From a virus, in UHGV virus genome UHGV-1383670: a stretch of DNA of 61,667 bases; one strand, given 5' to 3'. The notes below the pieces were generated by a model that was given only the letters and a program-made list of their open reading frames with translations, was not told the origin of the DNA and searched no databases. Positions 1 through 34,687 of this stretch are shown here, piece by piece (positions within the stretch are counted from its first letter, which is position 1; every line of letters begins with the position of its first letter). The position numbers and the translations under genes were made by a program.

Positions 1-3000
1 GCAGGAGCAGCTGGCCGACTGGCCGAAGGATGCCGAGCTGAACGAGGCCCGGACCCGTCACGGCGAAGTGCTGGATCAGCTGAAACCGAAGAAAAAAGAG
101 TCTGCCCCGACTGTTGCCAATCCGGAAACGCCGGCGCAGAAGTCGCAACAGGATAATCTGCAGTCGTGGTCGCGCATTTCCAGCGGCCAGCGTCAGGCTT
201 CGCAGAAAAATCTCGCAGAAATGCGTCGCATGCGTGCGCAGGCTGCACCGACTGATCGGTTTGCTGAGCTGGTGCGTCGTATCGAGTTCCAGAACCAGAG
301 GGAAACCAGTAACCCGCAACGTGTTCTTGCGTCCCTACGTGCAGCTGAATTGAGCGGGCAGTACGACGCGAAAGGCATGCAGCTCGCACAGTGGCTTATC
401 CGCCAGTACCCGAATGTGGCCCGTTCTCTGAACATCGAGATGAAACAGGGTAGTGATGATCTGCCAGCAGGTAACTATAACGTTCCGACGCGGTTGATCT
501 CACTCTACAGCAACTACACGAACGAGCGCGGGCAGAACGTTGCCGGCACTGATGCTGTAACGGCCACACACGAAATCATGCACCATCTGGAACGTATGTT
601 GCCCCGCGACGTGCAGGAGGCCATTGCCGAGCGCTGGTTCGACGCGATGAAAGCCCGTCTGGCTGAATACAAATCCGCTGGCCAGACCCGGAGAGGCGAT
701 CTGCTGGCTGACCTGGTGGCTGGTATGTATGGCGACCGGGCGGGGCTGGAGCGCGCACGTCAGGCCATGATGAGTGGTGAGCTGCCCGGGAGCGACTACC
801 AGTTCGCATCTCCGTCTGAATATTGGGCTGAGAACGGCGCCCGTATCATTGCAGAACGCAAGGCAGAGGCAGAGCGCCGCGCTGGACGTAATTGGGTGGA
901 TAAAGCTGTCGATGTTATGCGGTCCATCATCGCGAAGATCCGTAATCTGGTGGGGCGCAGTAGCGACACGCGCACCGAGCTGGATGACGCACTGGATAGC
1001 GTTCTCGCCGGTGACGGTCAGTTCGTTGCCGACGCGACTACCCTGAACCGCGTAGGCGATGACCTCTACGGCTTATCCGATGCTTTCACTGGGGACGACA
1101 TGCCACAGATGCGGTCCGGTCTGGATCCTGACCCGAACCCGCCGAGCACCGCCGACAACGACGGAATGATTAAGCGCTGGTGGGACACCACGAAAAATTG
1201 GACGAGCGATAAACTCACGCAATCCATGCCGAAACTGCTGGCCACCGTGCCAATGCGGCCGCTGGTGCGCGAGCTGGGGCGCAATCTGGCCGGTGCTGCC
1301 GACTATATGCGCCTGAAACAGAGCATGGACGCCATGCGCAGCGAGTGGCATGCGAAGACGGATAAGGTTGCGCAGCGCTGGCTGAAATACCGCGTGGCCA
1401 ACAAGGCCGAGAACGCCGAGCTGATGGATCTGATGCATGAGGCTACCCGCGTGCAGGTAGACCCGTCAGAGAAGTTCGCCCCGCTGATGACCGACCGTGA
1501 GCGCGATGCCCTGCGTACGGCGCCCATCAACTCCAGCCAGTACGAAACGCTGGTGAAGAAGGCCGCCCAGGACAAGAAGCGCCGCGAGGCTCACCGTTCG
1601 CTGCAGGAGCGCTGGAACAAGCTGTCTCCGGAGGCTCGCGAGATCTACATCGAGGTCCGCGATACCTATAAGGCGATGGCCGACGCCTACGAGGGCATTC
1701 TCCTCAAGAATATGGAGAAGGCCATCAACGTGCGTATCAAGAAGGCCGAACGCGAGCACCGCGCCGATATGGAGGAAATCGCAGACCTTGGCCTGACCGG
1801 CCAGGAGAAACAGGACGCGATCGACAAGGCGAACGGCCGCCTGCGCGCCGCGAAGACGAAAATCTCCTGGAACCGCAAGGCACGCATCACGCAGCTGCGC
1901 CAGCAGTTCGAAATGGAGCGCCTGGCCGGCCCGTATTTCCCGCTGGCCCGCTTCGGCAACTTCTTCGTGACCGTCCGCAACAAGCAGGAGGGCTTCGTGG
2001 AGTCGTTCTCCCGATTTGAGGATGTCACCGCCCAGCGCAAGTTCGCCAACATGATGCGCCAGAACCCGAACTATGAGGTTGAGGTGGGCGCGCTCGATGA
2101 TACCGCGTCCGTCCGTAAAGCCGTGGATCCGAACTTCGTAGCGGACGTTGAGGATATCCTGGCCGACCTGCCGAACGCCGATAAGGTGAAGGATGAGGTA
2201 TGGCAGCGGTACCTGGAGACGTTGCCGGATCTGTCCGTGCGTAAGAACCGCATTCACCGTAAGGGCCGCGCCGGCTTCGATGCCGACGCCCTGCGCGCGT
2301 TCGGGAACCAGATGTTCCATGGTTCACACCAGCTGGCCCGCCTGGCTCACTCCTTCGATATGGAAGAGGCGATCGACCAGGCGCGCGAAGAAGCCCGCCA
2401 CACCAATGACCCGGTGCGCGATACGCTGGTGGTGAACGAAATCGCCAAGCGGCATGAGTTCGTCATGAACCCGACCGGCGGCAGCATCGCCCAGGCGATT
2501 ACGTCTGCAGCGTTCATCTATCACCTGTCCGTCAGTCCGGCGGCCGCGATGGTGAACATGTCGCAGACCGTCATTATCGGCGTTCCGATCCTGGCCTCCT
2601 ACCAGGGCGGCGCCAGGGGCTTCACCCGCGCCTCTAACCAGCTGATGAAGGCGCTGCGCGACTTCACGGTCGGCCGTGGGTATGCCGAACGGTCGAAATA
2701 CCTGACGGCCGACGAAAAGGCGGCGATGGAGCAGGGGTATAACACCGGCGTCATCGACCGTACGCAGTCACACGACCTGGCGGGCGTAGGCGAAACCGGC
2801 GTCGAGTACAGCCCGAAACGCGCCAAAGCGATGGCGGCTATCTCCTGGGCGTTCCACCATACCGAGCGGCTTAACAGGGAAGTCACCTTCCTGGCCGCCT
2901 ACCGCATGGCCCGGGCTAAGGGGGAGAGCCACGCGCAGGCAATCAACACCGCCGGCGACCTGACCTGGAAGACGCACTTCGACTACCAGAACACGTCGCG

Positions 3001-3991
3001 GCCGCGCGTCATGCACAGTGACGTCGCGAAGGCGCTGCTGGTGTTCCGCAACTACAACGTCAACATGCTGTGGCGGCTGTTCCGCGATACGCACCAGGCG
3101 CTGAACGGCGAGAGCAAGGAAATCCGCCGGGAGGCGTTCACGCAGCTGGCCGGGATCACCGGCATGATGATGGCCAACGCCGGCATCAAAGGTACCTGGC
3201 TGTTCGGCATCGCGATGGTGCTGGCCGGCCTGTTCCTGGGTGACGATGAGGATCCGGAAGTCGAGCTGAAAAAAGCCATGGTGAAGTCTATCGGCCCGAT
3301 GATGACCGGCCTCGCGCTCGACGGTATCCCGGGATACATCACCGGCACGTCGCTGAGCGAACGTATCGGTATGCCGGACCTGTGGTTCCGCTCGCCCGAT
3401 CGCCAGCTCGAAGGGCAGGACGAGTATAACTACTGGATGCAGCAGGCGCTGGGTGCCGCCCCGGGCATTGTGCAGAACGCAATGCGCGGCTTCGCGATGT
3501 TCAAGCAGGACCAGACGTATCGCGGCATTGAGACGATAGCGCCGAAGGTCATTAAAGACCTTATGCGCGCGTACCGATACCAGACCGAAGGCGTGACAAC
3601 GCTGAAAGGCGATAAGCTGCTGGAAGAGGTGACGCCATGGGAGACGTTCGTGCAGGCGCTGGGCTTCACGCCGGCCGCACTGGCAGAGCGCTATGCTATC
3701 AATAGCGCAAACATGAACAAACAGAACGCCATCATGAAGGAGCGCAAAGCCCTGCTGGACCGCTACGCCCGCGCTGACAAAGCCGGAGACGAAAAGGCGA
3801 TCGAGCGCATCGAGCAGGATATGGACAAGTTCTCAGCCAGGTACCCGGAGCAGGAAATAACCGAGAAGGTGATTCGTAGCTCTCTGCGTACGCGCGAGCG
3901 AAATAGCGAGAACAATGACGCCGGCATGTTGTACAATCGCCGACTGCGGGAGCGCATCCTGGAAGAGCAATCCCCAACGGTATATCGGTAA
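1..3991 (+). CDS. 3' portion (about 1330 aa) of a giant polyvalent virion protein; the frame is open from nt 2, so the gene enters from outside the window. Contains an HExxH (THEIMHHLE) zincin-like metallopeptidase motif.
   Basis: The ORF track shows 68..3991, but the same frame has no stop back to nt 2 (QEQLADWPKDAEL...). HEIMHH motif at about nt 560-580. Long and alpha-helical, with no start codon context at nt 68. Confidence 0.7.
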   Translation, partial: QEQLADWPKDAELNEARTRHGEVLDQLKPKKKESAPTVANPETPAQKSQQDNLQSWSRISSGQRQASQKNLAEMRRMRAQAAPTDRFAELVRRIEFQNQRETSNPQRVLASLRAAELSGQYDAKGMQLAQWLIRQYPNVARSLNIEMKQGSDDLPAGNYNVPTRLISLYSNYTNERGQNVAGTDAVTATHEIMHHLERMLPRDVQEAIAERWFDAMKARLAEYKSAGQTRRGDLLADLVAGMYGDRAGLERARQAMMSGELPGSDYQFASPSEYWAENGARIIAERKAEAERRAGRNWVDKAVDVMRSIIAKIRNLVGRSSDTRTELDDALDSVLAGDGQFVADATTLNRVGDDLYGLSDAFTGDDMPQMRSGLDPDPNPPSTADNDGMIKRWWDTTKNWTSDKLTQSMPKLLATVPMRPLVRELGRNLAGAADYMRLKQSMDAMRSEWHAKTDKVAQRWLKYRVANKAENAELMDLMHEATRVQVDPSEKFAPLMTDRERDALRTAPINSSQYETLVKKAAQDKKRREAHRSLQERWNKLSPEAREIYIEVRDTYKAMADAYEGILLKNMEKAINVRIKKAEREHRADMEEIADLGLTGQEKQDAIDKANGRLRAAKTKISWNRKARITQLRQQFEMERLAGPYFPLARFGNFFVTVRNKQEGFVESFSRFEDVTAQRKFANMMRQNPNYEVEVGALDDTASVRKAVDPNFVADVEDILADLPNADKVKDEVWQRYLETLPDLSVRKNRIHRKGRAGFDADALRAFGNQMFHGSHQLARLAHSFDMEEAIDQAREEARHTNDPVRDTLVVNEIAKRHEFVMNPTGGSIAQAITSAAFIYHLSVSPAAAMVNMSQTVIIGVPILASYQGGARGFTRASNQLMKALRDFTVGRGYAERSKYLTADEKAAMEQGYNTGVIDRTQSHDLAGVGETGVEYSPKRAKAMAAISWAFHHTERLNREVTFLAAYRMARAKGESHAQAINTAGDLTWKTHFDYQNTSRPRVMHSDVAKALLVFRNYNVNMLWRLFRDTHQALNGESKEIRREAFTQLAGITGMMMANAGIKGTWLFGIAMVLAGLFLGDDEDPEVELKKAMVKSIGPMMTGLALDGIPGYITGTSLSERIGMPDLWFRSPDRQLEGQDEYNYWMQQALGAAPGIVQNAMRGFAMFKQDQTYRGIETIAPKVIKDLMRAYRYQTEGVTTLKGDKLLEEVTPWETFVQALGFTPAALAERYAINSANMNKQNAIMKERKALLDRYARADKAGDEKAIERIEQDMDKFSARYPEQEITEKVIRSSLRTRERNSENNDAGMLYNRRLRERILEEQSPTVYR

Positions 3992-4125: not shown

Positions 4126-4165
4126 AGCCCCCGGTTGCCCACCAGCTCCCGGGGGCTTTTTCTTA
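4126..4165 (+). terminator. Rho-independent terminator after the giant gene
   Basis: GC stem agcccccgg / ccgggggct followed by TTTTTCTT. Confidence 0.6.
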
Positions 4166-4257
4166 TCCTTTGTTGTGGTATCAGCAACACTCAGACTAAA
4201 ATCGAAACGATACCGAAAATCACCGCGTATGACGTGCGGCCAACTTGAGGGCGCGTC

Positions 4258-4848
4258 ATGTCGCAAAATCTCACAGAAAAAGACTATCAAAAGGCCGCGA
4301 ACCAGCTGGGCGTTCCGGTCGCTGCCGTGAAGGCAGTAGCCTCCGTTGAAAGCAATGGCGGCGGATTTCTCCCTGATGGCCGCGTGAAGGTTCAGTTCGA
4401 GCCACACGTATTTTACCAGCGGGTAAAGCTGAAATTCGGCCAGGCTCGCGCCGACAAAGAGCTGAAAGCTCATCCCGACCTGCTGGCGCTAAAGCCAGGC
4501 AGCTATCAGAAGCTCGACCAGGAAGACAAGGATATGGACCGGGCGGCCACCCTGATTGACCGCCAGTGCGCCCTGGAGTCCGCCTCCTGGGGTGCCTTTC
4601 AGATCATGGGCTATCACTGGAAAACCTGTGGATATTCCACCCAGCAGGACTTCATCAACGCGCAGTACAGCGACGCCGGCCAGCTCGATACCTTCGTGCG
4701 CTTCGTCAATGCCGACGTGCGCCTGGTTCGCGCGCTACAGCGCCGTGATTGGGCCGGGTTTGCCAGCGTCTACAACGGCCCCGGCTACAAGGCGAACAAG
4801 TACGACACGAAAATGGCATCCGCTTACGCACAGTTCGGGGGTGCCTGA
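4258..4848 (+). CDS. Endolysin, N-acetylmuramidase (DUF3380 family)
   Basis: N-terminal peptidoglycan-binding-like region and a KAVASVESNGGGF motif typical of DUF3380 muramidases. Sits directly upstream of the spanin genes. Confidence 0.7.
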   Translation: MSQNLTEKDYQKAANQLGVPVAAVKAVASVESNGGGFLPDGRVKVQFEPHVFYQRVKLKFGQARADKELKAHPDLLALKPGSYQKLDQEDKDMDRAATLIDRQCALESASWGAFQIMGYHWKTCGYSTQQDFINAQYSDAGQLDTFVRFVNADVRLVRALQRRDWAGFASVYNGPGYKANKYDTKMASAYAQFGGA

Positions 4849-12621: not shown

Positions 12622-13252
12622 GGCTGTCCTCCTGGGGAGGGACGGGGGCGTAAACAGGTCCGGCGAGCGTCAAGCCAGGCACCGGCACGTCGCTAATAGA
12701 AAATACGGTGCCACCGTCAGCTGTGATGAACATGTAACCGATTGTCAGCATGCCATCCGGCGCTACCGGCGCTGGCTGCGGGGCAGCGAATAGTTCGACA
12801 CCTTCCGGTAACTGCTGATAAAGCGAGACGTGAATGCTTTTCCTCTCCCGAGTACCGACATATCGGACAATGCCCACCGGCTCACTGTCTAATACGGCCT
12901 GGCGCCGCGCTTCCTCGTACGCTTCCAGGACCACCGGCAGCAGTTCGCCGTCCTGCAGCTGCTGCGCGAGCGATGGCTTGAACTCCAGCACATCGCTGGT
13001 GGGATCGCACACGTTCGCGAAGAGGGTTTCATAGCCGCCGAAGATGCGGTTGAAGGCGCCTTCTTCCACGGCGAACTTGTAGCAGCGCAGGAAGAAGAGC
13101 TTTTCCAGGCGGGAAAGGTTTTCGAAGTCGATATCGCGAGCTGAATAATTCCAGTTCTCGTACTGGAGGCGCTGGGCGGCACGATAGACGGCCCAGGCTA
13201 ATTTGATGTCGTCGCTGCTTGCAGCGGCCATCCGAACACTGACAGTAGCCAT
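12614..13252 (-). CDS. Hypothetical phage early protein
   Basis: First gene of the leftward operon, downstream of the CI-proximal promoter region at 13253-13380. Confidence 0.5.
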   Translation of the reverse strand: MATVSVRMAAASSDDIKLAWAVYRAAQRLQYENWNYSARDIDFENLSRLEKLFFLRCYKFAVEEGAFNRIFGGYETLFANVCDPTSDVLEFKPSLAQQLQDGELLPVVLEAYEEARRQAVLDSEPVGIVRYVGTRERKSIHVSLYQQLPEGVELFAAPQPAPVAPDGMLTIGYMFITADGGTVFSISDVPVPGLTLAGPVYAPVPPQEDSHD

Positions 13253-18041: not shown

Positions 18042-18982
18042 GCCTCCTGTTTACCCGCAAGCCTATCGTCGTGAACGCCGACCTGGCCGACCGCATCGGC
18101 CTGAACGAGGCGATCGTGCTGCAGCAACTGAACTACTGGATATCGGACTCGACCGCCGGCGAGGAATTTGACGGCCGCAAATGGGTCTACAACACGTTCG
18201 AGGAGTGGCAGCGCGATAACTTCCCGTTCTGGTCAGTCGATACCGTCAAACGGACCTTCACAAAGCTCAAAAAGCTGGGGCTGGTGAAGGTCAAGCAGCT
18301 GCGTGCGTCGAAGCACGACCACACGAATTTCTACACAATTGACTACGCTCACGCCCTTCTCACCGATCAGGGCAATTTGCACCAATCGAACGGGGCAAAC
18401 TGCAACGACCCATCAGGGCAAAATGCACCAGCCCATCAGGGCAATTTGCCCCAACCCAACGGGGCAGAATGCACCAATCTTCATACAGAGACTACTACAG
18501 AGACTACTACAGAGATTTCTTCCGGCGCGGGAAATCCCGCTCCGGCCGGCGGTGGTTCTGGCGTGCCTGCAGTGTTGCCAGAACAGCAACAGCAGGACGA
18601 AAACCATAACGGACCCAGCTACGAACGGATCCGGGGTGTCTTTTGGGAATGGTTCGATGCTGCCTATCAGAAACGCTACAACACGACGATCCCGCGCAAT
18701 GCGAAGACCAACGCTCAGGTGAAGCAGCTGATACAGCGCCTGGGCAGGGAAGCGCCTGGCGTAGCGCGGTTCTACGTCGAGAACGTCACTGAACCCCGCG
18801 TGCTGGTGGCCAGTCATACGCTCGACTTCCTGCTGCTGAACGCCGAGGGCTACCGCACTCAGTGGCTCAACGGCCGCGCAATGACGCAGGGCCGTGCCCG
18901 CCAGATCGACATGACGCAGACGAACGCCAGCGCCGCCGAGGAAGCAAAAGCGATGCTGCGCGCCAGGAGGGAGGCTAACTGA
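18038..18982 (+). CDS. Replication initiator, lambda O-like (N-terminal replisome-organizer HTH); contains the iteron array
   Basis: N-terminus LADRIGLNEAIVLQQLNYWI. Five ~18-bp iterons inside the coding sequence, plus a C-terminal domain. Confidence 0.6.
   Translation: MSLLFTRKPIVVNADLADRIGLNEAIVLQQLNYWISDSTAGEEFDGRKWVYNTFEEWQRDNFPFWSVDTVKRTFTKLKKLGLVKVKQLRASKHDHTNFYTIDYAHALLTDQGNLHQSNGANCNDPSGQNAPAHQGNLPQPNGAECTNLHTETTTETTTEISSGAGNPAPAGGGSGVPAVLPEQQQQDENHNGPSYERIRGVFWEWFDAAYQKRYNTTIPRNAKTNAQVKQLIQRLGREAPGVARFYVENVTEPRVLVASHTLDFLLLNAEGYRTQWLNGRAMTQGRARQIDMTQTNASAAEEAKAMLRARREAN
18360..18485 (+). repeat. Iteron array (candidate origin of replication); 5 imperfect copies of CAGGGCAA(A/T)(A/T)TGCACC-like repeats
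   Basis: cagggcaatttgcacc / acggggcaaactgcaacg / cagggcaaaatgcacc / cagggcaatttgcccc / acggggcagaatgcacc, followed by the tandem repeat acagagactact x2.5 (18487-18516). Confidence 0.55.
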
Positions 18983-28392: not shown

Positions 28393-28833
28393 ATGAGTCA
28401 TTTGATTAGGCATGCACTGGACCTGACGCAGAGCCATTTTTGCAAAGCACGCGGGGATCTGACGCTCTACGGCACCTGGTTCGGTGACAAGCGCCGGCCG
28501 TGCCTCGTTGTCGTTCCCACGTTCCGCCAGAACTATCTGACCTGCAAGCCGCTGGTCGTCTGCATTGACGACGCCTGGAAGTGGAACCCGGACGACCCTG
28601 ACGCGATGCCGGAAATCAATGCGCTTATGGTGCAGAGCTTCCTCGACCAGAACGGCTTCGACATGACGAACACCTTCACCATGATGCGTGTCGTCTCCTT
28701 CATCCATGACCACCTTGGCGACCTGCTGCGCATCCCACCGAAGCCGGTGAGTGAGATCGTCGTTGCCGATGCGGTCCAGACCGACCACGCGACAGGGAAA
28801 GTCACAACCCGGGAGATTATCGACCGTGTTTGA
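28393..28833 (+). CDS. Hypothetical protein between terL and portal
   Basis: ORF preceded by the palindrome GTTGC-TAATCTG-GCAAC at 28346-28362. Confidence 0.45.
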   Translation: MSHLIRHALDLTQSHFCKARGDLTLYGTWFGDKRRPCLVVVPTFRQNYLTCKPLVVCIDDAWKWNPDDPDAMPEINALMVQSFLDQNGFDMTNTFTMMRVVSFIHDHLGDLLRIPPKPVSEIVVADAVQTDHATGKVTTREIIDRV

Positions 28834-28856
28834 TGACGACGAAAAACAAAGCGGCA

Positions 28857-31165
28857 TGGACTTTCAGCAGGGGAGACTGGACACCAGCGACCCCTGGACC
28901 CGAATGCCGAAGTCCGAAGACGGGAGCAGCGGCAAGAAGCAACACCCGCTCGACAGCCTGCCGATGGAGACGCGTTTCCGGCGCCTTCTCAGCCTGTACG
29001 AGGATGAGCTGGACCGCCAGGGCGAGAACCGGGCGCAGATGGCGCTCGATGAAGACTTCTACGACAGCATACAGTGGCGCGAGGAAGATGCGGCCGCCCT
29101 CCGCGAACGCGGGCAGATGCCGCTGGTCTACAACGTCATCAGCACCACGGTTAACTGGATCACCGGTTCCGAGAAGCGCGGACGCACGGACTACAAAATC
29201 CTCCCGCGCCGTAAGGATGCCGGCAAGCCTGCAGAGCGCAAAACGCAGCTCATGAAGTACCTGAGCGACGTGAACCGGACGCCGTTCCATCGCTCCCAGG
29301 CATTCGAAGACCAGGTGAAGGTCGGTATCGGCTGGCTGGAAATCGGCGTGCAGGAAGGTGACGACGGCGAGCCGGTCTACGTCCGCTACGAGTCCTGGCG
29401 CAATATCCTGTGGGATAGCGCCTGTACCGAGAAAGACCTGAAAGACTGCCGCTACATCTTCCGCACCAAGTGGGTGGACCTCGATATCGCCATAGCCATG
29501 TTCCCCGATCGCAAGGGGCTGCTGGAGAGCGATGCATCGGCTAACCAGAGCTATGGCCTGGATACCCAGGGCGATGAAGCGATGGACAGCCAGGAAGATG
29601 CACTGGAGGGGTACAGCTCGACCCGCACGAACCTGGGCGCCCACCGCCGCCCTCGCGTTCGCCTCATTGAGTGCTGGCACAGGTACCCGCAAGACCTGAT
29701 GCGCATGAAAGGCGGCGACTTCGCCGGCGAAATTTATGACCCGGCTGATCCGGCGCCAGGCCACCAGGCGGATATCGAGGCCGGTCGCGGTACTCCGGTT
29801 CCGCGCCAGAAGGCCATGCGTATGCAGGTCAGCATCTTCTGCCCGTCCGGCATGCTGTACAACGATGTCAGCCCGTACCGCCACAATGACTTCCCGTTCA
29901 CCCCGTTCTGGTGCTACCGGCGCGGCCGCGACAAGCTCCCGTATGGTGTTATCCGTGGCCTCCGCGACATGCAGGAGGACATCAACAAGCGTGCGAGCAA
30001 AGCGCTCTACATCCTCTCTACGAACAAGGTGATCGTGGACGAGGGTGCGGTAGACGACCCTGAGGAGCTGCGCGAAGAGGTGAGCCGTCCGGATGCCTTT
30101 ATCGTGAAGAAGAAAGGCTACGAAATTCAGCTCAACGCCGAGCGCGAGCTGGCTGCTGCGCATCTGGATATGATGAGTCGCAGCATGATGATGATCCAGA
30201 GCGTGTCCGGCGTCACCGATGAGAACCTGGGGCGCCAGACCAATGCCACCAGCGGCAAGGCAATCACCGCCCGCCAGGAGCAGGGCAGTCTCGCTACTGC
30301 CGGCATCTTCGACAACCTGCGCCTGGCCGTGCAGGTGCATGGTGAGAAGGAGCTGAGCTGCATCGAGCAGTTCTTTACCGAGCGCAAGCAGTTCCGCATC
30401 ACCAACATGCGCGGTACCCCGCAGTACATCGATATCAACGACGGTCTGCCGGAAAACGATATCATCCGCTCAAAGGCGGATTTCGTCATTTCCGAGGCCG
30501 ACTGGCGCAACAGCGTACGCCAGGCACAGACAGATGAGCTGTTCGCCCTGCTGCAGCAGCTGGCACCAGTGGCGCCGCAGGTTGCCATGGTCATGCTCGA
30601 CCTGATTGTCGAAGATATGGACATCGCGAGCCGTGACGAGCTGGTGAAGCGTATTCGCCAGGTGACAGGTATGCGCGATCCGGACGCCGAAGAGCCGACC
30701 CCGGAAGAAGTGGCAGCAGAGCAGGCCAAGCAGAAGCAGGCCCAGCTGCAGGAGCGCGCCGTTATGGCCGATATCGCGGCGAAGGAGGCGAAAGCCAACC
30801 GCGACAACGTTGCCGCCGGCAAAGACCAGGCCGCTATCCAGAAAATCCTGTCCGAGCTGGCAGGTCAGAACGTTCAGACCCAGCTTGCCGCGCTGCAAGC
30901 CGCCATTACCGCACTGCAGGCGCCAGGCGCAGTGCCGGTAGCCGATGGCATGCTGCATGAGGCCGGGTTTGTCTCACGCACCGAAGGAGAGGAGACGCAG
31001 CGCCAGGAGGCTATTCAGCAGTCGGAGGCCGAACAGGCCGCCTTACAGCAGCAGCAACAGCAGCAGGCGATGGCCGAAGAAGAGGCCGCCCGCCAGCAGC
31101 AGGAGCAGCAACAGCAGGATCCAGCCCAGGGCATGGGCCTGCCGCAACCAACCCAACCACAATGA
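28857..31165 (+). CDS. Portal protein (large, with a Gln-rich C-terminal barrel-like tail)
   Basis: Size, and position after terL and before scaffold. C-terminus QQQQQQAMAEEEAARQQQEQQQQ. Possible alternative GTG start at 28829. Confidence 0.65.
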
Positions 31166-31177
31166 CGAGGATTGACC

Positions 31178-32110
31178 ATGAGTGACCGCGATTTGACTCC
31201 AGAAGAACTGGCCATGCTGACACCTGCAGAGCGCGCAGGCCTGGAAGATGACGACGACGGCGACGATAACGAAGAGGTTATCGAAGACGAAGAGCTGAGC
31301 GCAGAAGCAAAAGCGGCAGCGGAAGGCGAAGGGGAAGACGAAACCCCACCAGCCAAACAGGACGAAGGGCAGCCTGGCGCCAAGCAGGAAGCCGAAGGCG
31401 AAGACGAGCAGGGCGCACAGCAGCAGGAGACGACCCAGGCCGCGCAGCCGGTTCCCCTGTTCAAGGCTGACCTTCCGGAGGACATCGACGCCAAGTTTAA
31501 GGACATCGACAGCCGCGAAGAGGCGCTGATCGAGAAGTTCGAAGACGGCGACCTGACCACCCGCGAATACAACGCGGAGCTGCGCAAGCTCAACAAAGAG
31601 CGTTCTGACCTGGAATGGCTGCAGCGCAAGGCTGAACTCTCCCAGGAGTCAAGCCAGACCCAGCGCGAGCAGCAGTGGTACAACGATGTTGGCTCTTTCG
31701 TGAAGACGCACCCGCTCATCGAGAAGAACGAGACGATGTGGAACAGCTTTGACGCCGTTCTGCGCAAGGTGACGGCCACGACGATCGCCGCCGGCGGATG
31801 GCCAGGACAGGCCGACATCGAGAAGGCCTATAAGCAGTGGTCCGAAGACCTGGGGATCTCGACCGATACGCCAGCACCGAAGCCGGCGCCTGCAGCTGAG
31901 AAGAAAGAGACGCCAGCACCGGCCGCCGCGAAGAAGGAACTCAAGGTTCCGCCGACGCTGGCCAACGTGCCGGCTGCGTCTCATGAAGACACGGACGACG
32001 GCAAGTATGCGCACCTTGACCGTCTGGCTGATGAAGACCCGCTGGCATACGAGGAGGCGATTAAGAAGCTCTCCCCGGGTGAGTGGGAAGAGTATTCGCA
32101 GTCTCGATAA
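31178..32110 (+). CDS. Scaffolding protein (highly acidic)
   Basis: Asp/Glu-rich, helical, and sited between portal and capsid genes. Confidence 0.55.
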   Translation: MSDRDLTPEELAMLTPAERAGLEDDDDGDDNEEVIEDEELSAEAKAAAEGEGEDETPPAKQDEGQPGAKQEAEGEDEQGAQQQETTQAAQPVPLFKADLPEDIDAKFKDIDSREEALIEKFEDGDLTTREYNAELRKLNKERSDLEWLQRKAELSQESSQTQREQQWYNDVGSFVKTHPLIEKNETMWNSFDAVLRKVTATTIAAGGWPGQADIEKAYKQWSEDLGISTDTPAPKPAPAAEKKETPAPAAAKKELKVPPTLANVPAASHEDTDDGKYAHLDRLADEDPLAYEEAIKKLSPGEWEEYSQSR

Positions 32111-32122
32111 GGGGAAAGGACG

Positions 32123-32305
32123 ATGATACAGCACAACCTGCGCCTGGGCGAAGAGCTGCGAATTGGTGACACCGTAGTACGCATGGTGAAGAAATCCGGG
32201 CAGGTTGCTGCCCTTGTTATCGACGCTCCGCCAGAAGTGAAGATCGTTATTTCCAAAGACCGGGAGGATAGCCAGAAGCCACGAAATCCATTAACCACGT
32301 CTTGA
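32123..32305 (+). CDS. CsrA-like RNA-binding protein homolog
   Basis: MIQHNLRLGEELRIGDTVVRMV..GQVAALVIDAPPEVKIV aligns with CsrA [48 protein letters not shown]. Confidence 0.5.
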   Translation: MIQHNLRLGEELRIGDTVVRMVKKSGQVAALVIDAPPEVKIVISKDREDSQKPRNPLTTS

Positions 32306-32403
32306 GTGTTTGCATTTCAGCAACACTCAATCGATAATCACAACGAGCGCTGCGTATGACGTGCGGCTTCCAGGTATCCCGCACGCATTGAGGGCAAGCG
32401 CAT

Positions 32404-33507
32404 ATGGGCCAAACAACTATTCCCTTCGGTGATCCGAAGGCCCAAAAACGGTGGTCCGGTAAGCTCTTCGTGGAGACCATCGCGAAGAGCTACTGGGAAC
32501 GTTTCATCGGAACGTCCACCAATTCCGTAATCCAGCGCAAAACTGAGCTGGAATCCGACGCGGGCGACCGCATCTCCTTCGACCTGTCTGTCATGCTTCG
32601 TGGCGGCCCGACTACGGGTGACGCGCGACTGAAAGGCAATGAAGAAGCTCTGAAATTCTTCACCGATGAAGTCATCATCGACCAGATCCGTAAATCGGTA
32701 TCGGCCGGCGGTAAGATGACCCGTAAGCGTACCGCGCATGACCTGCGCCAGGTCGCTAAGGATCGTCTGTCCGACTGGTGGGCGGAGTACATCGACCAGA
32801 TGTTCTTCATCTACATGTCCGGTTCTCGCGGCATCAACGAAGACTTCCAGGCCTTCCCGCTCGACTACGCTGGCCACGCCGGCAACGAGCTGCGCCAGCC
32901 GGACGGTCAGCACATCCTGTTTGGTGGTGACGCCACCAGCAAAGCCACCATCACCGCCGACGATACCATGTCCCGCATGGTCATCGAGCGCGCCGTGACC
33001 AAGGCACGCATGATGCGTTCTCGCGACCCGAAAAACGCCAACCTGCTGCCGATCAAAATCAACGGCGAAAAACACTACGTCGTGGTGATGTCGCCGTACC
33101 AGGAGCACGACCTGCGCTCCGAAGTGGGCGAACGTGGCTGGCTGGAAGTTCAGAAAGCTGCAGCTGCCGCAGAAGGTAAGAACAACCCTATCTTCAAAGG
33201 CGGCCTGGGCATGATCAACAACGTCGTGCTGCACAGCCATGAGCACTCTATCCGCTTCAACGACTATGGCGCTGGCCAGAACGTGAGCGCGGGGCGTGCG
33301 CTGTTCATGGGTACCCAGGCGGGCGTGGTTGCATACGGCACTGCCGGCGGTCTGCGCTTCACCTGGAAAGAGGAAGTGGACGACTACGGTAACGAGCCGT
33401 CCGTCGCAGCCGGTACCATCATCGGCGTGTCCAAAACCCGCTTCAACAAACGTGATTTCGGCGTGGTGGCTATCGACACCGCTGCTGCAGATCCGAACGC
33501 CGCATAA
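32404..33507 (+). CDS. Major capsid protein
   Basis: 367 aa, downstream of the scaffold gene. Gly-rich. Synteny. Confidence 0.6.
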   Translation: MGQTTIPFGDPKAQKRWSGKLFVETIAKSYWERFIGTSTNSVIQRKTELESDAGDRISFDLSVMLRGGPTTGDARLKGNEEALKFFTDEVIIDQIRKSVSAGGKMTRKRTAHDLRQVAKDRLSDWWAEYIDQMFFIYMSGSRGINEDFQAFPLDYAGHAGNELRQPDGQHILFGGDATSKATITADDTMSRMVIERAVTKARMMRSRDPKNANLLPIKINGEKHYVVVMSPYQEHDLRSEVGERGWLEVQKAAAAAEGKNNPIFKGGLGMINNVVLHSHEHSIRFNDYGAGQNVSAGRALFMGTQAGVVAYGTAGGLRFTWKEEVDDYGNEPSVAAGTIIGVSKTRFNKRDFGVVAIDTAAADPNAA

Positions 33508-33519
33508 GGGGGCAGCACG

Positions 33520-33975
33520 ATGGCTCTGATTCAATCCGATTGGGCGAAAGGCCTCAAACCCGTAGCCCGTCCGCAGACCGCGTGGACCGTCCACGCGCAG
33601 CTGTTCATCGTCGATGTGCCGGCAGCGGGCTTCGCTACCGGCGACATCCTGGAGCTGGCCGTTCTCCCGCCGTACGCCCGCATTGTGGGCGCGCAGCTGG
33701 TGACGGTTGGCAGCCTGGGCGCCGCGACCGTGGACGTTGGTCTGATGTCCGGTACCACCGGTGAGCTGACCAACGACGACAACAGCGCCCGTACCTCCGG
33801 GAATGAGCTGTTTGCCGCTGCAGCGCTGACCGCTGAGCTGACCTTTATCAGCAAGGCGGCCGCCCTGCTGCTCGCGCCGGCCGAGAAAGACCGCTCCATC
33901 GGCGTGAAGTTCAGCGCCGCTGTTGCGGCCGGCGCCGGCAAGAAGATCGGCCTGCTGCTGCAGTTCGCTCAGTAA
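33520..33975 (+). CDS. Hypothetical head protein (decoration candidate)
   Basis: Ala/Gly-rich 151-aa ORF right after the capsid gene. Confidence 0.4.
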   Translation: MALIQSDWAKGLKPVARPQTAWTVHAQLFIVDVPAAGFATGDILELAVLPPYARIVGAQLVTVGSLGAATVDVGLMSGTTGELTNDDNSARTSGNELFAAAALTAELTFISKAAALLLAPAEKDRSIGVKFSAAVAAGAGKKIGLLLQFAQ

Positions 33976-34027
33976 GGATTAGGGGCGGATGCCCCTTTTC
34001 CTTTTCCCCCATCACCGAGGTATCCGC

Positions 34028-34687
34028 ATGAAGATTGAAAGTATCATTCAGCGCAAGAACGGCACCCGCGTTACGCTCGATGCGCCGACCCGTCATTACC
34101 ATTTCAAGCCTACCGAAACCGATCCGCGCCACCTGGCCGAAGTCACCGAAGCCTCGCACATCGCTATGCTGCTGCGCATTCGGGACGGTTATCGCGCCGT
34201 AGAAGGCGAAGAGCTGCCGGAAGACACCACCGACACCAGCAAAGACGCATTCACGCGCGAGCTGAAAGGCAGCTCCGTTCACAACGCCACCTACACCATC
34301 AAGGGCGGTGACACTATCGAGCTGGACGACCTGGTAGGCATGGCGTTCGAAGATAGCGGCCTGTCCGAAGACGACTGGAACGACCTGGCCGACCAGGAGC
34401 GCTACGAGTTTATCGATCGCACCCTGTCCGAGCTGGTTGACCCGCCGGAAGAGGGCGCCACCCAGGAAACTCCGCCGGCGCCGGCCGCAGATGCACCGAC
34501 CGACGACGCCAAGACTCCACCGACTAGCGCCACCAGCGCCAGTGAAGGTGATGGCGAGGGCGAGGGCGAAGAGCCGGAAGAGCTGAGCCGCGAAGAGTGG
34601 GCCGCGAAGTACAAAGCCCTCTACGGCCGTAACCCGAACAAAAATCTGACCGTCGCGCAGATCAAGCGCGCTGTCGTAGACGCGTAA
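34028..34687 (+). CDS. Acidic structural protein with a Rho_N-like C-terminal helix
   Basis: ATG with RBS. DE-rich. C-terminal NLTVAQIKRAV. Confidence 0.45.
   Translation: MKIESIIQRKNGTRVTLDAPTRHYHFKPTETDPRHLAEVTEASHIAMLLRIRDGYRAVEGEELPEDTTDTSKDAFTRELKGSSVHNATYTIKGGDTIELDDLVGMAFEDSGLSEDDWNDLADQERYEFIDRTLSELVDPPEEGATQETPPAPAADAPTDDAKTPPTSATSASEGDGEGEGEEPEELSREEWAAKYKALYGRNPNKNLTVAQIKRAVVDA

Follow-up and report, generated by a model that had tools for sequence, protein, structure and literature searches.

CsrA and its relatives RsmA and RsmE (PF02599) are global post-transcriptional regulators that work with decoy small RNAs (sRNAs) and act on short hairpins near the Shine-Dalgarno (SD) sequence of targets such as glgC, hcnA and ymdA. 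CsrA recognizes GGA in short hairpin loops and can bridge sites lying 10-63 nucleotides (nt) apart; L4 and R44 are critical for its RNA binding, as are R6, R7, V40 and V42 (PMC7652899). CsrA was further shown to activate ymdA by opening an SD-sequestering hairpin and to protect the 5' end of flhDC (PMC7652899). Homologues of CsrA are also carried by mobile elements, including plasmid RsmQ of Pseudomonas, reported to control host behaviour globally, CsrT of a Legionella integrative and conjugative element (ICE), proposed to regulate ICE activity, and the RsmM-type genes of P. aeruginosa phages (PMC9928087, PMC7366521), the latter being ~62-63% identical to E. coli CsrA (PMC7366521). Surveys of such elements list the copies of Bcep22-like phages (PMC7366521, PMC8450108), the papers on phages JC1 and CSP3 call the gene a moron (PMC9144972, PMC10269572), and a therapy review considered that it could affect biofilms (PMC8310193). 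Here we describe one such CsrA-like gene, an open reading frame (ORF) of 60 amino acids (aa) located at positions 32123-32305 of the virus genome UHGV-1383670, whose entire stretch of 61,667 nt is called the window below. With a probability of roughly 45%, the CsrA-fold protein that it encodes would be dedicated to post-transcriptional control of late leaders of the phage itself, those of the capsid and endolysin messages; RNA binding, target identity and the direction of control are what we infer from comparative sequence analysis. A preliminary description of the locus had offered two roles, retuning of host CsrA/CsrB circuitry and control of the adjacent capsid mRNA. The second appears to fit the evidence better: a hairpin of the kind that CsrA targets is conserved in the capsid leader and covaries, its loop following the R44-equivalent residue of the protein, but the leader holds no GGA.

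The CsrA homology of the window protein and its beta-core fold are solid. PHROG 8397 ('CsrA-like regulator') matches with E=1e-16 and 61.7 bits, residues 1-47 aligning with profile positions 2-48 of 64, and a profile of 40 family members matches the solved structures of RsmE (2jpp, E=4e-11) and CsrA (1y00, E=2e-9). The AlphaFold2 model, built with 120 relatives, reaches a predicted local distance difference test (pLDDT) score of 91-95 over residues 1-40 and shows an extended monomer, as expected of a swapped protomer. In a Foldseek comparison with the PDB, ranks 1-15 were all CsrA, RsmA or RsmE chains (template modelling score 0.65-0.72; best root-mean-square deviation 0.9 Å over 44 columns); an AbrB-like or Csd3_N identity was rejected, Csd3_N giving only E=0.024 while the top fold matches were all CsrA. 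The CsrA landmarks G9, I14-G15-D16, G26 and A35-P36 are present, the size is similar, and identity to CsrA is 23-25%. Tandem two-domain CsrA-like chains occur in two relatives (L045 2030-2407, 125 aa; L061 2120-2443, 107 aa, with L103 being the same contig) and fit a dimeric unit, being natural single-chain pseudo-dimers; the window protein presumably forms a domain-swapped dimer.

The likeness, which the preliminary description had drawn along the full length of the protein, is confined to residues 1-44, i.e., the beta core. Residues 45-60 form a 16-residue tail that is rich in Pro, lacks conservation, has low pLDDT and shows no helix. The Pfam search that had been proposed as a check did return the CsrA family (PF02599, E=1.7e-4), at 22 bits and hence under the gathering score of 27 for the window protein alone; precomputed PF02599 matches exist for most other members of the phage CsrA-like family. 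The NCBIfam equivalog NF002469 gave 14 bits against a cut-off of 73. Superfamily homology therefore holds, whereas equivalog status, the curated cut-offs and the defining RNA-binding features fail. Two observations on related proteins can be added. Proteins of the main, Bcep22-type branch share a C-terminal motif, A..IAA..GI(T/S)G (family alignment A4, P0031-P0145), that is absent from both the window protein and CsrA. An exhaustive search with the 60-aa query also matched two giant proteins, P0005 (3387 aa) and P0008 (7311 aa; 8 stretches, ~32% identity); these could contain repeats of a comparable beta-hairpin unit, or the matches could be artefactual.

The ORF and the genes that flank it are the following:

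32123-32305, + strand: CsrA-like ORF, 60 aa, ATG to TGA (PHROG, Pfam, family profile, fold model, dN/dS)
32111-32120, + strand: Shine-Dalgarno-like GGGGAAAGGA before the CsrA-like ATG, read from the sequence
31172-32110, + strand: scaffold-like gene, 312 aa, acidic, directly before the CsrA-like ORF and in the same transcription unit (phrog_8246 E=3e-84)
28751-31165: P22-type portal gene, ahead of the scaffold-like gene
32404-33507, + strand: major capsid protein gene of the N4-gp56 type, whose message is the proposed target (Pfam Phage_capsid_3 E=9e-71; phrog_334 E=1e-134)

The ORF between scaffold and capsid genes is present as first described, with a Shine-Dalgarno-like stretch ahead of it. 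In this G+C-rich DNA, ORFs of 40 aa or more abound (64 in 8.5 kb), and a 60-codon ORF alone therefore proves little; its reality rests on the PHROG match, on synteny and on the ratio of nonsynonymous to synonymous divergence (dN 0.057, dS 0.326, dN/dS ~0.17, against a 90%-identical relative). The identical protein is encoded by 28 public contigs measuring at most 62 kb, under the NCBI name 'carbon storage regulator [Klebsiella pneumoniae]'. The ORF is confirmed as a true gene.

The window is a Bcep22-like podophage; a search of a plasmid collection with the window gave no match, and a known phage-plasmid was thus discarded as its identity. DNA identity of the region to any GenBank phage is at most ~75%, the nearest being Klebsiella phages LASTA, SJM3 and ZX1, followed by Erwinia Stean, Pseudomonas Itty13 and the Burkholderia phages Bcep22, JC1, DC1 and BcepIL02. 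With the small protein as a tblastn query, relatives were found in 23 phage records, mostly annotated 'CsrA-like regulator'. The order portal, scaffold-like, CsrA-like, a spacer of 95-112 nt and capsid is shared by Bcep22, LASTA, Itty13, SopranoGao, Skulduggery, PEp14, Parlo and Stean. Among 105 related loci in which the capsid start could be placed (from GenBank phages, IMG/VR, metagenomes and genomes, the genome collection contributing 3 loci), 98 have a CsrA-like gene at most 2.5 kb upstream of the capsid gene, directly upstream in most, and this extends to ~50% capsid identity. Four of the remaining seven lack enough upstream DNA to tell, and three represent one phage, discussed below.

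Bcep22 gp54 and the CsrA-like genes of Lessievirus, Lastavirus, Ittyvirus, Pavtokvirus, Parlovirus and Skulduggeryvirus (PHROG 8397) thus resemble the window gene in family, in position and in having the same promoter and hairpin in the spacer. The window protein is at most 61% identical to the copies in GenBank phages (local tblastn). Bcep22-type proteins have R30, R43, an AGGA(U) loop in the leader and the C-terminal A..IAA..GI motif, whereas the window phage has none of these. The window family is also far more divergent from CsrA than the RsmQ, CsrT and RsmM-type genes, and it is tied to the leader of a structural gene; unlike CsrA, RsmA and RsmE, the phage gene is fixed beside one candidate target gene and is not a global regulator with decoy sRNAs, of which none were found in the window. 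The annotation as CsrA-like is years old in this phage group, so the finding is not new as an annotation, and the window gene is best filed as a divergent variant of a known, already annotated phage family. What seems to be unreported is the conserved cassette of promoter, hairpin and switch, the second copy of it ahead of the endolysin gene, and the way in which protein and loop change together.

The evidence suggesting an RNA target for the protein comes from the leader of the capsid gene, in which two structures can be drawn:

32349-32367, + strand: hairpin HP-A, stem GCUGCGU (32349-32355) / GUGCGGC (32361-32367) and loop AUGAC (32356-32360), candidate protein-binding site
32347-32401, + strand: alternative leader fold, -24.3 kcal/mol, made of an inner hairpin and an outer helix
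32360-32366 and 32379-32385, + strand: inner hairpin CGUGCGG / CCGCACG of the alternative fold
32347-32353 and 32394-32401, + strand: outer helix GCGCUGC / GC.AGCGC of the alternative fold, just before the AUG

HP-A begins 2-4 nt past the predicted transcript start (near 32345) and has -7.2 kcal/mol on its own. The string GCGCA-N-GA-(N)-GUGC was found in most related leaders scanned, usually 41-58 nt ahead of the AUG, and the hairpin itself (GCGC/GUGC core, A-N-G-A-(N) loop) in 48 of 49 distinct leaders. Covariation was assessed in an alignment of 36 leaders, with 500 shuffles and slid pairing partners as controls. Paired cells made up 84% in HP-A and 74.5% in the shuffles (0/500 reached the observed value), and the covariation score was 0.284, compared with 0.151 in the shuffles (0/500) and 0.06-0.14 for slid partners. 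Five of the seven pairs change on both sides, the fifth pair appearing as U.G, C-G, A-U and G-C, while loop positions 3-4 (G, A) are invariant and the A at position 1 is nearly so. A G.U pair in the stem is kept in 34 of the 36 leaders. Since such a pair is not complementary in DNA, the reading of the motif as a DNA operator or palindrome was rejected; the pair points to HP-A acting as an RNA of the + strand.

The loop of this hairpin follows the protein across lineages. In 42 clusters, proteins with R at the R44-equivalent position tend to accompany a GGA loop (14 with GGA, 3 without), and other residues go with its absence (5 with GGA, 21 without; odds ratio 19.6, Fisher p=9e-5, phylogeny uncorrected). 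A large clade of the capsid tree combines R with AGGA throughout, apart from a single member with K. In a mixed clade, several sister contrasts agree with the association (L047 vs L043/L095; L005 vs L015; L074 vs L018/L021) and some are neutral; no reversed contrast, in which a GGA lineage lacks R while its non-GGA sister has it, was seen on that tree. Changes of the loop base number 11 on the tree of the CsrA-like protein and 14 on the capsid tree, compared with 27 at random. Proteins with H4, including that of the window, form one clade in which the loop is always AUGA. At the R44-equivalent position, 104 of the 120 best family members have R, 11 have K and 5 have I, the last being the window phage and its closest relatives; at the R31-equivalent, 111 have R. 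Within the enteric/pseudomonad branch the residue at the R44 position varies widely (I, C, G, S, T, L, V, A, K, R). The joint patterns of protein and loop are what direct contact would be expected to produce.

The alternative leader fold uses both arms of HP-A. The SD sequence GAGGG (32390-32394) lies in an internal loop of this fold and the bases between SD and AUG are paired; HP-A and the start-occluding fold are mutually exclusive. In most clades, the 3' arm of HP-A, GA(N)GUGC, pairs with GCAC(N)UC between SD and AUG; in the clade of the window, its partner is CCGCACG (32379-32385). Duplexes between cognate 5' and 3' regions were stronger than non-cognate ones, both family-wide (-15.5 vs -11.5 kcal/mol; 0/20000 permutations) and for the outer helix of the enteric clade (-5.75 vs -3.65 kcal/mol; 0/50000 permutations), whose arms vary in concert as GCGCU/AGCGC, GCGCC/GGCGC, AGUGCU/AGCACU, AAUUGC/GCAAUU and GUGAAAUG/CAUUUUAC. 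For 13 leaders aligned with MAFFT, RNAalifold returned HP-A alone; it missed the long-range helices because variable loops misalign, and it was replaced by these duplex tests. Rfam showed no family in the spacer up to E=10, and none at gathering score across the window.

The same spacer holds the predicted start of the capsid message:

32309-32338, + strand: sigma-70-like promoter of the capsid gene, TTTGCA-18-GATAAT (or TTGCAT-17-GATAAT)
32302-32330, + strand: 9-bp hairpin or inverted repeat TTGAGTGTT / AACACTCAA over the CsrA-like stop codon, with the -35 hexamer in its loop (minimum free energy -14 kcal/mol, z=-3.8)

This promoter is the sole promoter-like site within 31000-34200. The ATAAT of its -10 box is unchanged in 15 relatives, and distant clades have comparable GTTGCA sequences with A-rich -10 boxes. 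Of the 98 nt of the spacer, 2 differ from the 90%-identical relative, though dS there is ~0.33. The 32302-32330 hairpin has no U-tract, and the equivalent site of relative L015 has different yet complementary arms (GACCACTGTTT / AAACAGTGGTC); it may be the end of the upstream transcript or an operator. Two relatives (L030, L057) have an intrinsic terminator between the CsrA-like gene and the capsid promoter. In two others, extra genes lie between the CsrA-like stop and the capsid promoter, namely a 201-aa ORF of lower G+C (L009 1701-2306) and a 379-aa Fic-type ORF with the motif HPFGDGNGR (L050 1169-2308). This junction is a moron insertion site and, as both insertions are upstream of the promoter, promoter and leader stay with the capsid gene. 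Collectively, promoter, terminators and insertions indicate that the CsrA-like gene ends one transcription unit and that the capsid gene begins the next, which corrects the earlier placement of the gene inside a single head-morphogenesis operon.

A second cassette of the same type precedes the endolysin gene:

4173-4257, + strand: second promoter and leader cassette, with TCAGCAACACTCA shared with the capsid promoter (13-nt motif, promoter repeat)
4197-4202, + strand: -10 box TAAAAT of the cassette
4223-4239, + strand: HP-A of the cassette, CCGCGU / GUGCGG, loop AUGAC
4247-4251, + strand: SD sequence GAGGG of the cassette
4258-4848, + strand: endolysin gene, the second proposed target message (phrog_1224 E=2e-81; phrog_2860 E=2e-76)

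The window contains just two exact copies of the 13-nt core GCGTATGACGTGC, the second at 4225-4237. The promoter of the endolysin cassette is 80% identical to that of the capsid gene, and the transcript start is predicted at about 4209. Here too an alternative helix can form (AUGACGUGC, 4229-4237, with GCGCGUCAU, 4251-4259; -20.5 kcal/mol), which puts the AUG in its stem and the SD sequence in its loop. When one mismatch was allowed, the window held 12 matches to the motif against 5 expected; only those at 4225 and 32352 are intergenic cassettes, and the others were dropped because they lie inside genes. In Klebsiella phage LASTA, this hairpin stands ahead of both the capsid and the endolysin gene. 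In Bcep22 it precedes the capsid gene only and none was found in the lysis cassette, which restricts the endolysin link to the Klebsiella clade. A strong intrinsic terminator lies at ~4128-4155 (CCCCCGG...CCGGGGGCTTTTT), after a 1307-aa ORF (68-3991) and just ahead of the endolysin cassette.

How such a regulator might work can be pictured from a system with a different protein. In phage Mu, Com activates translation of mom by remodelling a start-occluding hairpin in the mom leader; Com is a zinc-finger protein and its fold is unrelated to that of CsrA. The logic proposed here resembles that of Com/mom and of CsrA/ymdA (PMC7652899) in that a small protein on an upstream hairpin would compete with a helix covering SD and AUG, although for the phage leader the direction of control is one that we infer. 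The CsrA-like gene would be expressed as the last of the portal/scaffold unit, after which the sigma-70-type promoter would start the capsid message and its near-copy, together with a copied leader, the endolysin message. The protein would bind the HP-A loop and so select between HP-A and the start-occluding fold. Activation would be the likelier direction, a closed HP-A keeping the start region open, because capsid is needed in bulk and yet a stable leader fold covers its start region, because HP-A takes the 5' arms of both occluding helices, and because the regulator gene is the last of the portal/scaffold unit. Capsid and endolysin synthesis would thereby be coupled to the earlier expression of portal and scaffold. 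Within the same model, the protein might instead repress by bridging HP-A and the SD sequence, or might protect the 5' end from RNase E. In the window phage, whose loop is AUGAC, specificity would have shifted away from GGA, a change with which I43, A30 and H4 are consistent. The fully specified version, a riboswitch-like switch in which a CsrA-like dimer holds open the capsid and endolysin starts after portal and scaffold have been made, and in which protein and loop have co-evolved from R44-AGGA to I43/H4-AUGAC, is possible but doubtful.

Several observations weigh against a dedicated leader regulator. The window protein has H4, L6, A30 and I43 where CsrA has L4, R6, R31 and R44 (the positions aligned with L4, R6, R7, V40, V42 and R44 read H4, L6, R7, V39, I41 and I43), and the C-terminal alpha helix of CsrA (residues ~45-58) is absent from the AlphaFold2 model, in whose final 20 residues pLDDT drops to 72 and further to 54. 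GGA is absent from the capsid leader (32306-32403), the candidate site having UGA instead, so that binding would require a changed specificity. The association of residue and loop ignores shared ancestry, and it has exceptions in both directions: PEp14, L041 and L023 have R without GGA, and L009, L081, L062 and L106 have GGA without R. Gene and hairpin lie only ~50 nt apart, and plain linkage could account for their co-inheritance. One phage (L064; L079 is the same contig and L026 has the same leader) keeps the hairpin but has no CsrA-like gene within 2.5 kb upstream; in L064, an AGGAU leader hairpin precedes the capsid gene and divergently oriented genes upstream of 2498 occupy the place of the CsrA-like gene. 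Single-sequence folding is not unusual (capsid leader, z=-0.25; HP-A, z=-0.5), and as such z-scores do not reach significance in this G+C-rich RNA, the structural support consists of covariation only. A 5' hairpin might stabilize its message without any protein. Finally, no functional experiment on CsrA-like genes of the Bcep22 group was found in the literature.

Many of these points are shared by the explanation that survives best among the alternatives, although it is unlikely: that hairpin and protein are unrelated, HP-A and the leader acting in cis as an RNase E stabilizer or as a self-contained fold that tunes translation, and the protein binding other RNAs of phage or host. The location of HP-A at the extreme 5' end of the predicted transcript, its persistence in L064, the exceptions to the association and the physical linkage would all be accommodated. 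However, a simple stabilizer needs no conserved loop, whereas the loop G and A are invariant in the 36 leaders; moreover, the G or non-G state of the loop follows the R44-equivalent, and the gene is kept beside the leader across a wide range of sampled phages.

Manipulation of the host is improbable. The protein would bind host CsrA targets or CsrB/CsrC, or form inactive mixed dimers, and would thereby change carbon storage, motility, biofilm formation or CRISPR-Cas control, a role that surveys and the JC1 paper have proposed for phage CsrA genes (PMC8450108, PMC9144972); the protein is a true CsrA homologue, and Klebsiella has a Csr system. Nevertheless, without GGA in the leader and with R44, R31 and L4 replaced by Ile, Ala and His, canonical GGA binding, and hence the host retuning proposed earlier, is unlikely for the window protein, which has also lost R6 and the helix. 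Burkholderia hosts of related phages lack a chromosomal csrA (PMC7366521), and no CsrB-like decoy RNA was found in the window by Rfam at gathering scores. Furthermore, the family occupies a constant place within the head module and not variable moron sites, real morons inserting beside it (L009, L050), and the gene has weak GTG or TTG starts in eight GenBank relatives.

A structural role, in which a small CsrA-fold dimer takes part in head assembly or in the virion without acting on RNA, has a slim chance. The gene sits between scaffold-like and capsid genes in almost all relatives, and one CsrA peptide was detected by mass spectrometry in CsCl-purified JC1 virions, a single-peptide result that its authors call unconfirmed (PMC9144972). 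On the other hand, the Bcep22 record labels several neighbouring genes, but not the CsrA-like gene, as virion-associated, the weak start codons of relatives suggest low abundance, and the residue that would face RNA follows the RNA loop.

Least probable, and very unlikely, is that the gene is a decaying, non-functional remnant in the window lineage, kept by chance or as a translational spacer, as the loss here of two arginines with 93-96% conservation among the 120 best family members and the sub-threshold Pfam score might suggest, since dN/dS is low, the ORF is intact with I43 kept in every close relative, AlphaFold2 is confident in the core, and many independent lineages without R keep the gene.

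Bcep22-type CsrA-like genes have been treated in the literature as host-directed morons, and the evidence presented here points instead to the phage's own messages. If this is true, regulation of late leaders would give a function to a widespread phage gene family, and the matched pairs of protein and hairpin (AGGA, AAGA, AUGA) would provide a natural series for studying how the specificity of the CsrA fold evolves. The cassette could likewise serve as a compact orthogonal translational switch for engineering, and the concern in phage therapy over modulation of biofilms or virulence by this gene would be largely unfounded.

Two further features of the window lie apart from these genes. ARAGORN finds a tRNA-Gly gene at 12734-12813 (anticodon ACC as printed), the only tRNA gene in the window. 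At 18363-18473, about five 23-nt repeats with the approximate consensus CCCATCAGGGCAAWTTGCA are arranged head to tail; they are perhaps iterons or an operator array, marking a replication origin or a repressor binding region.

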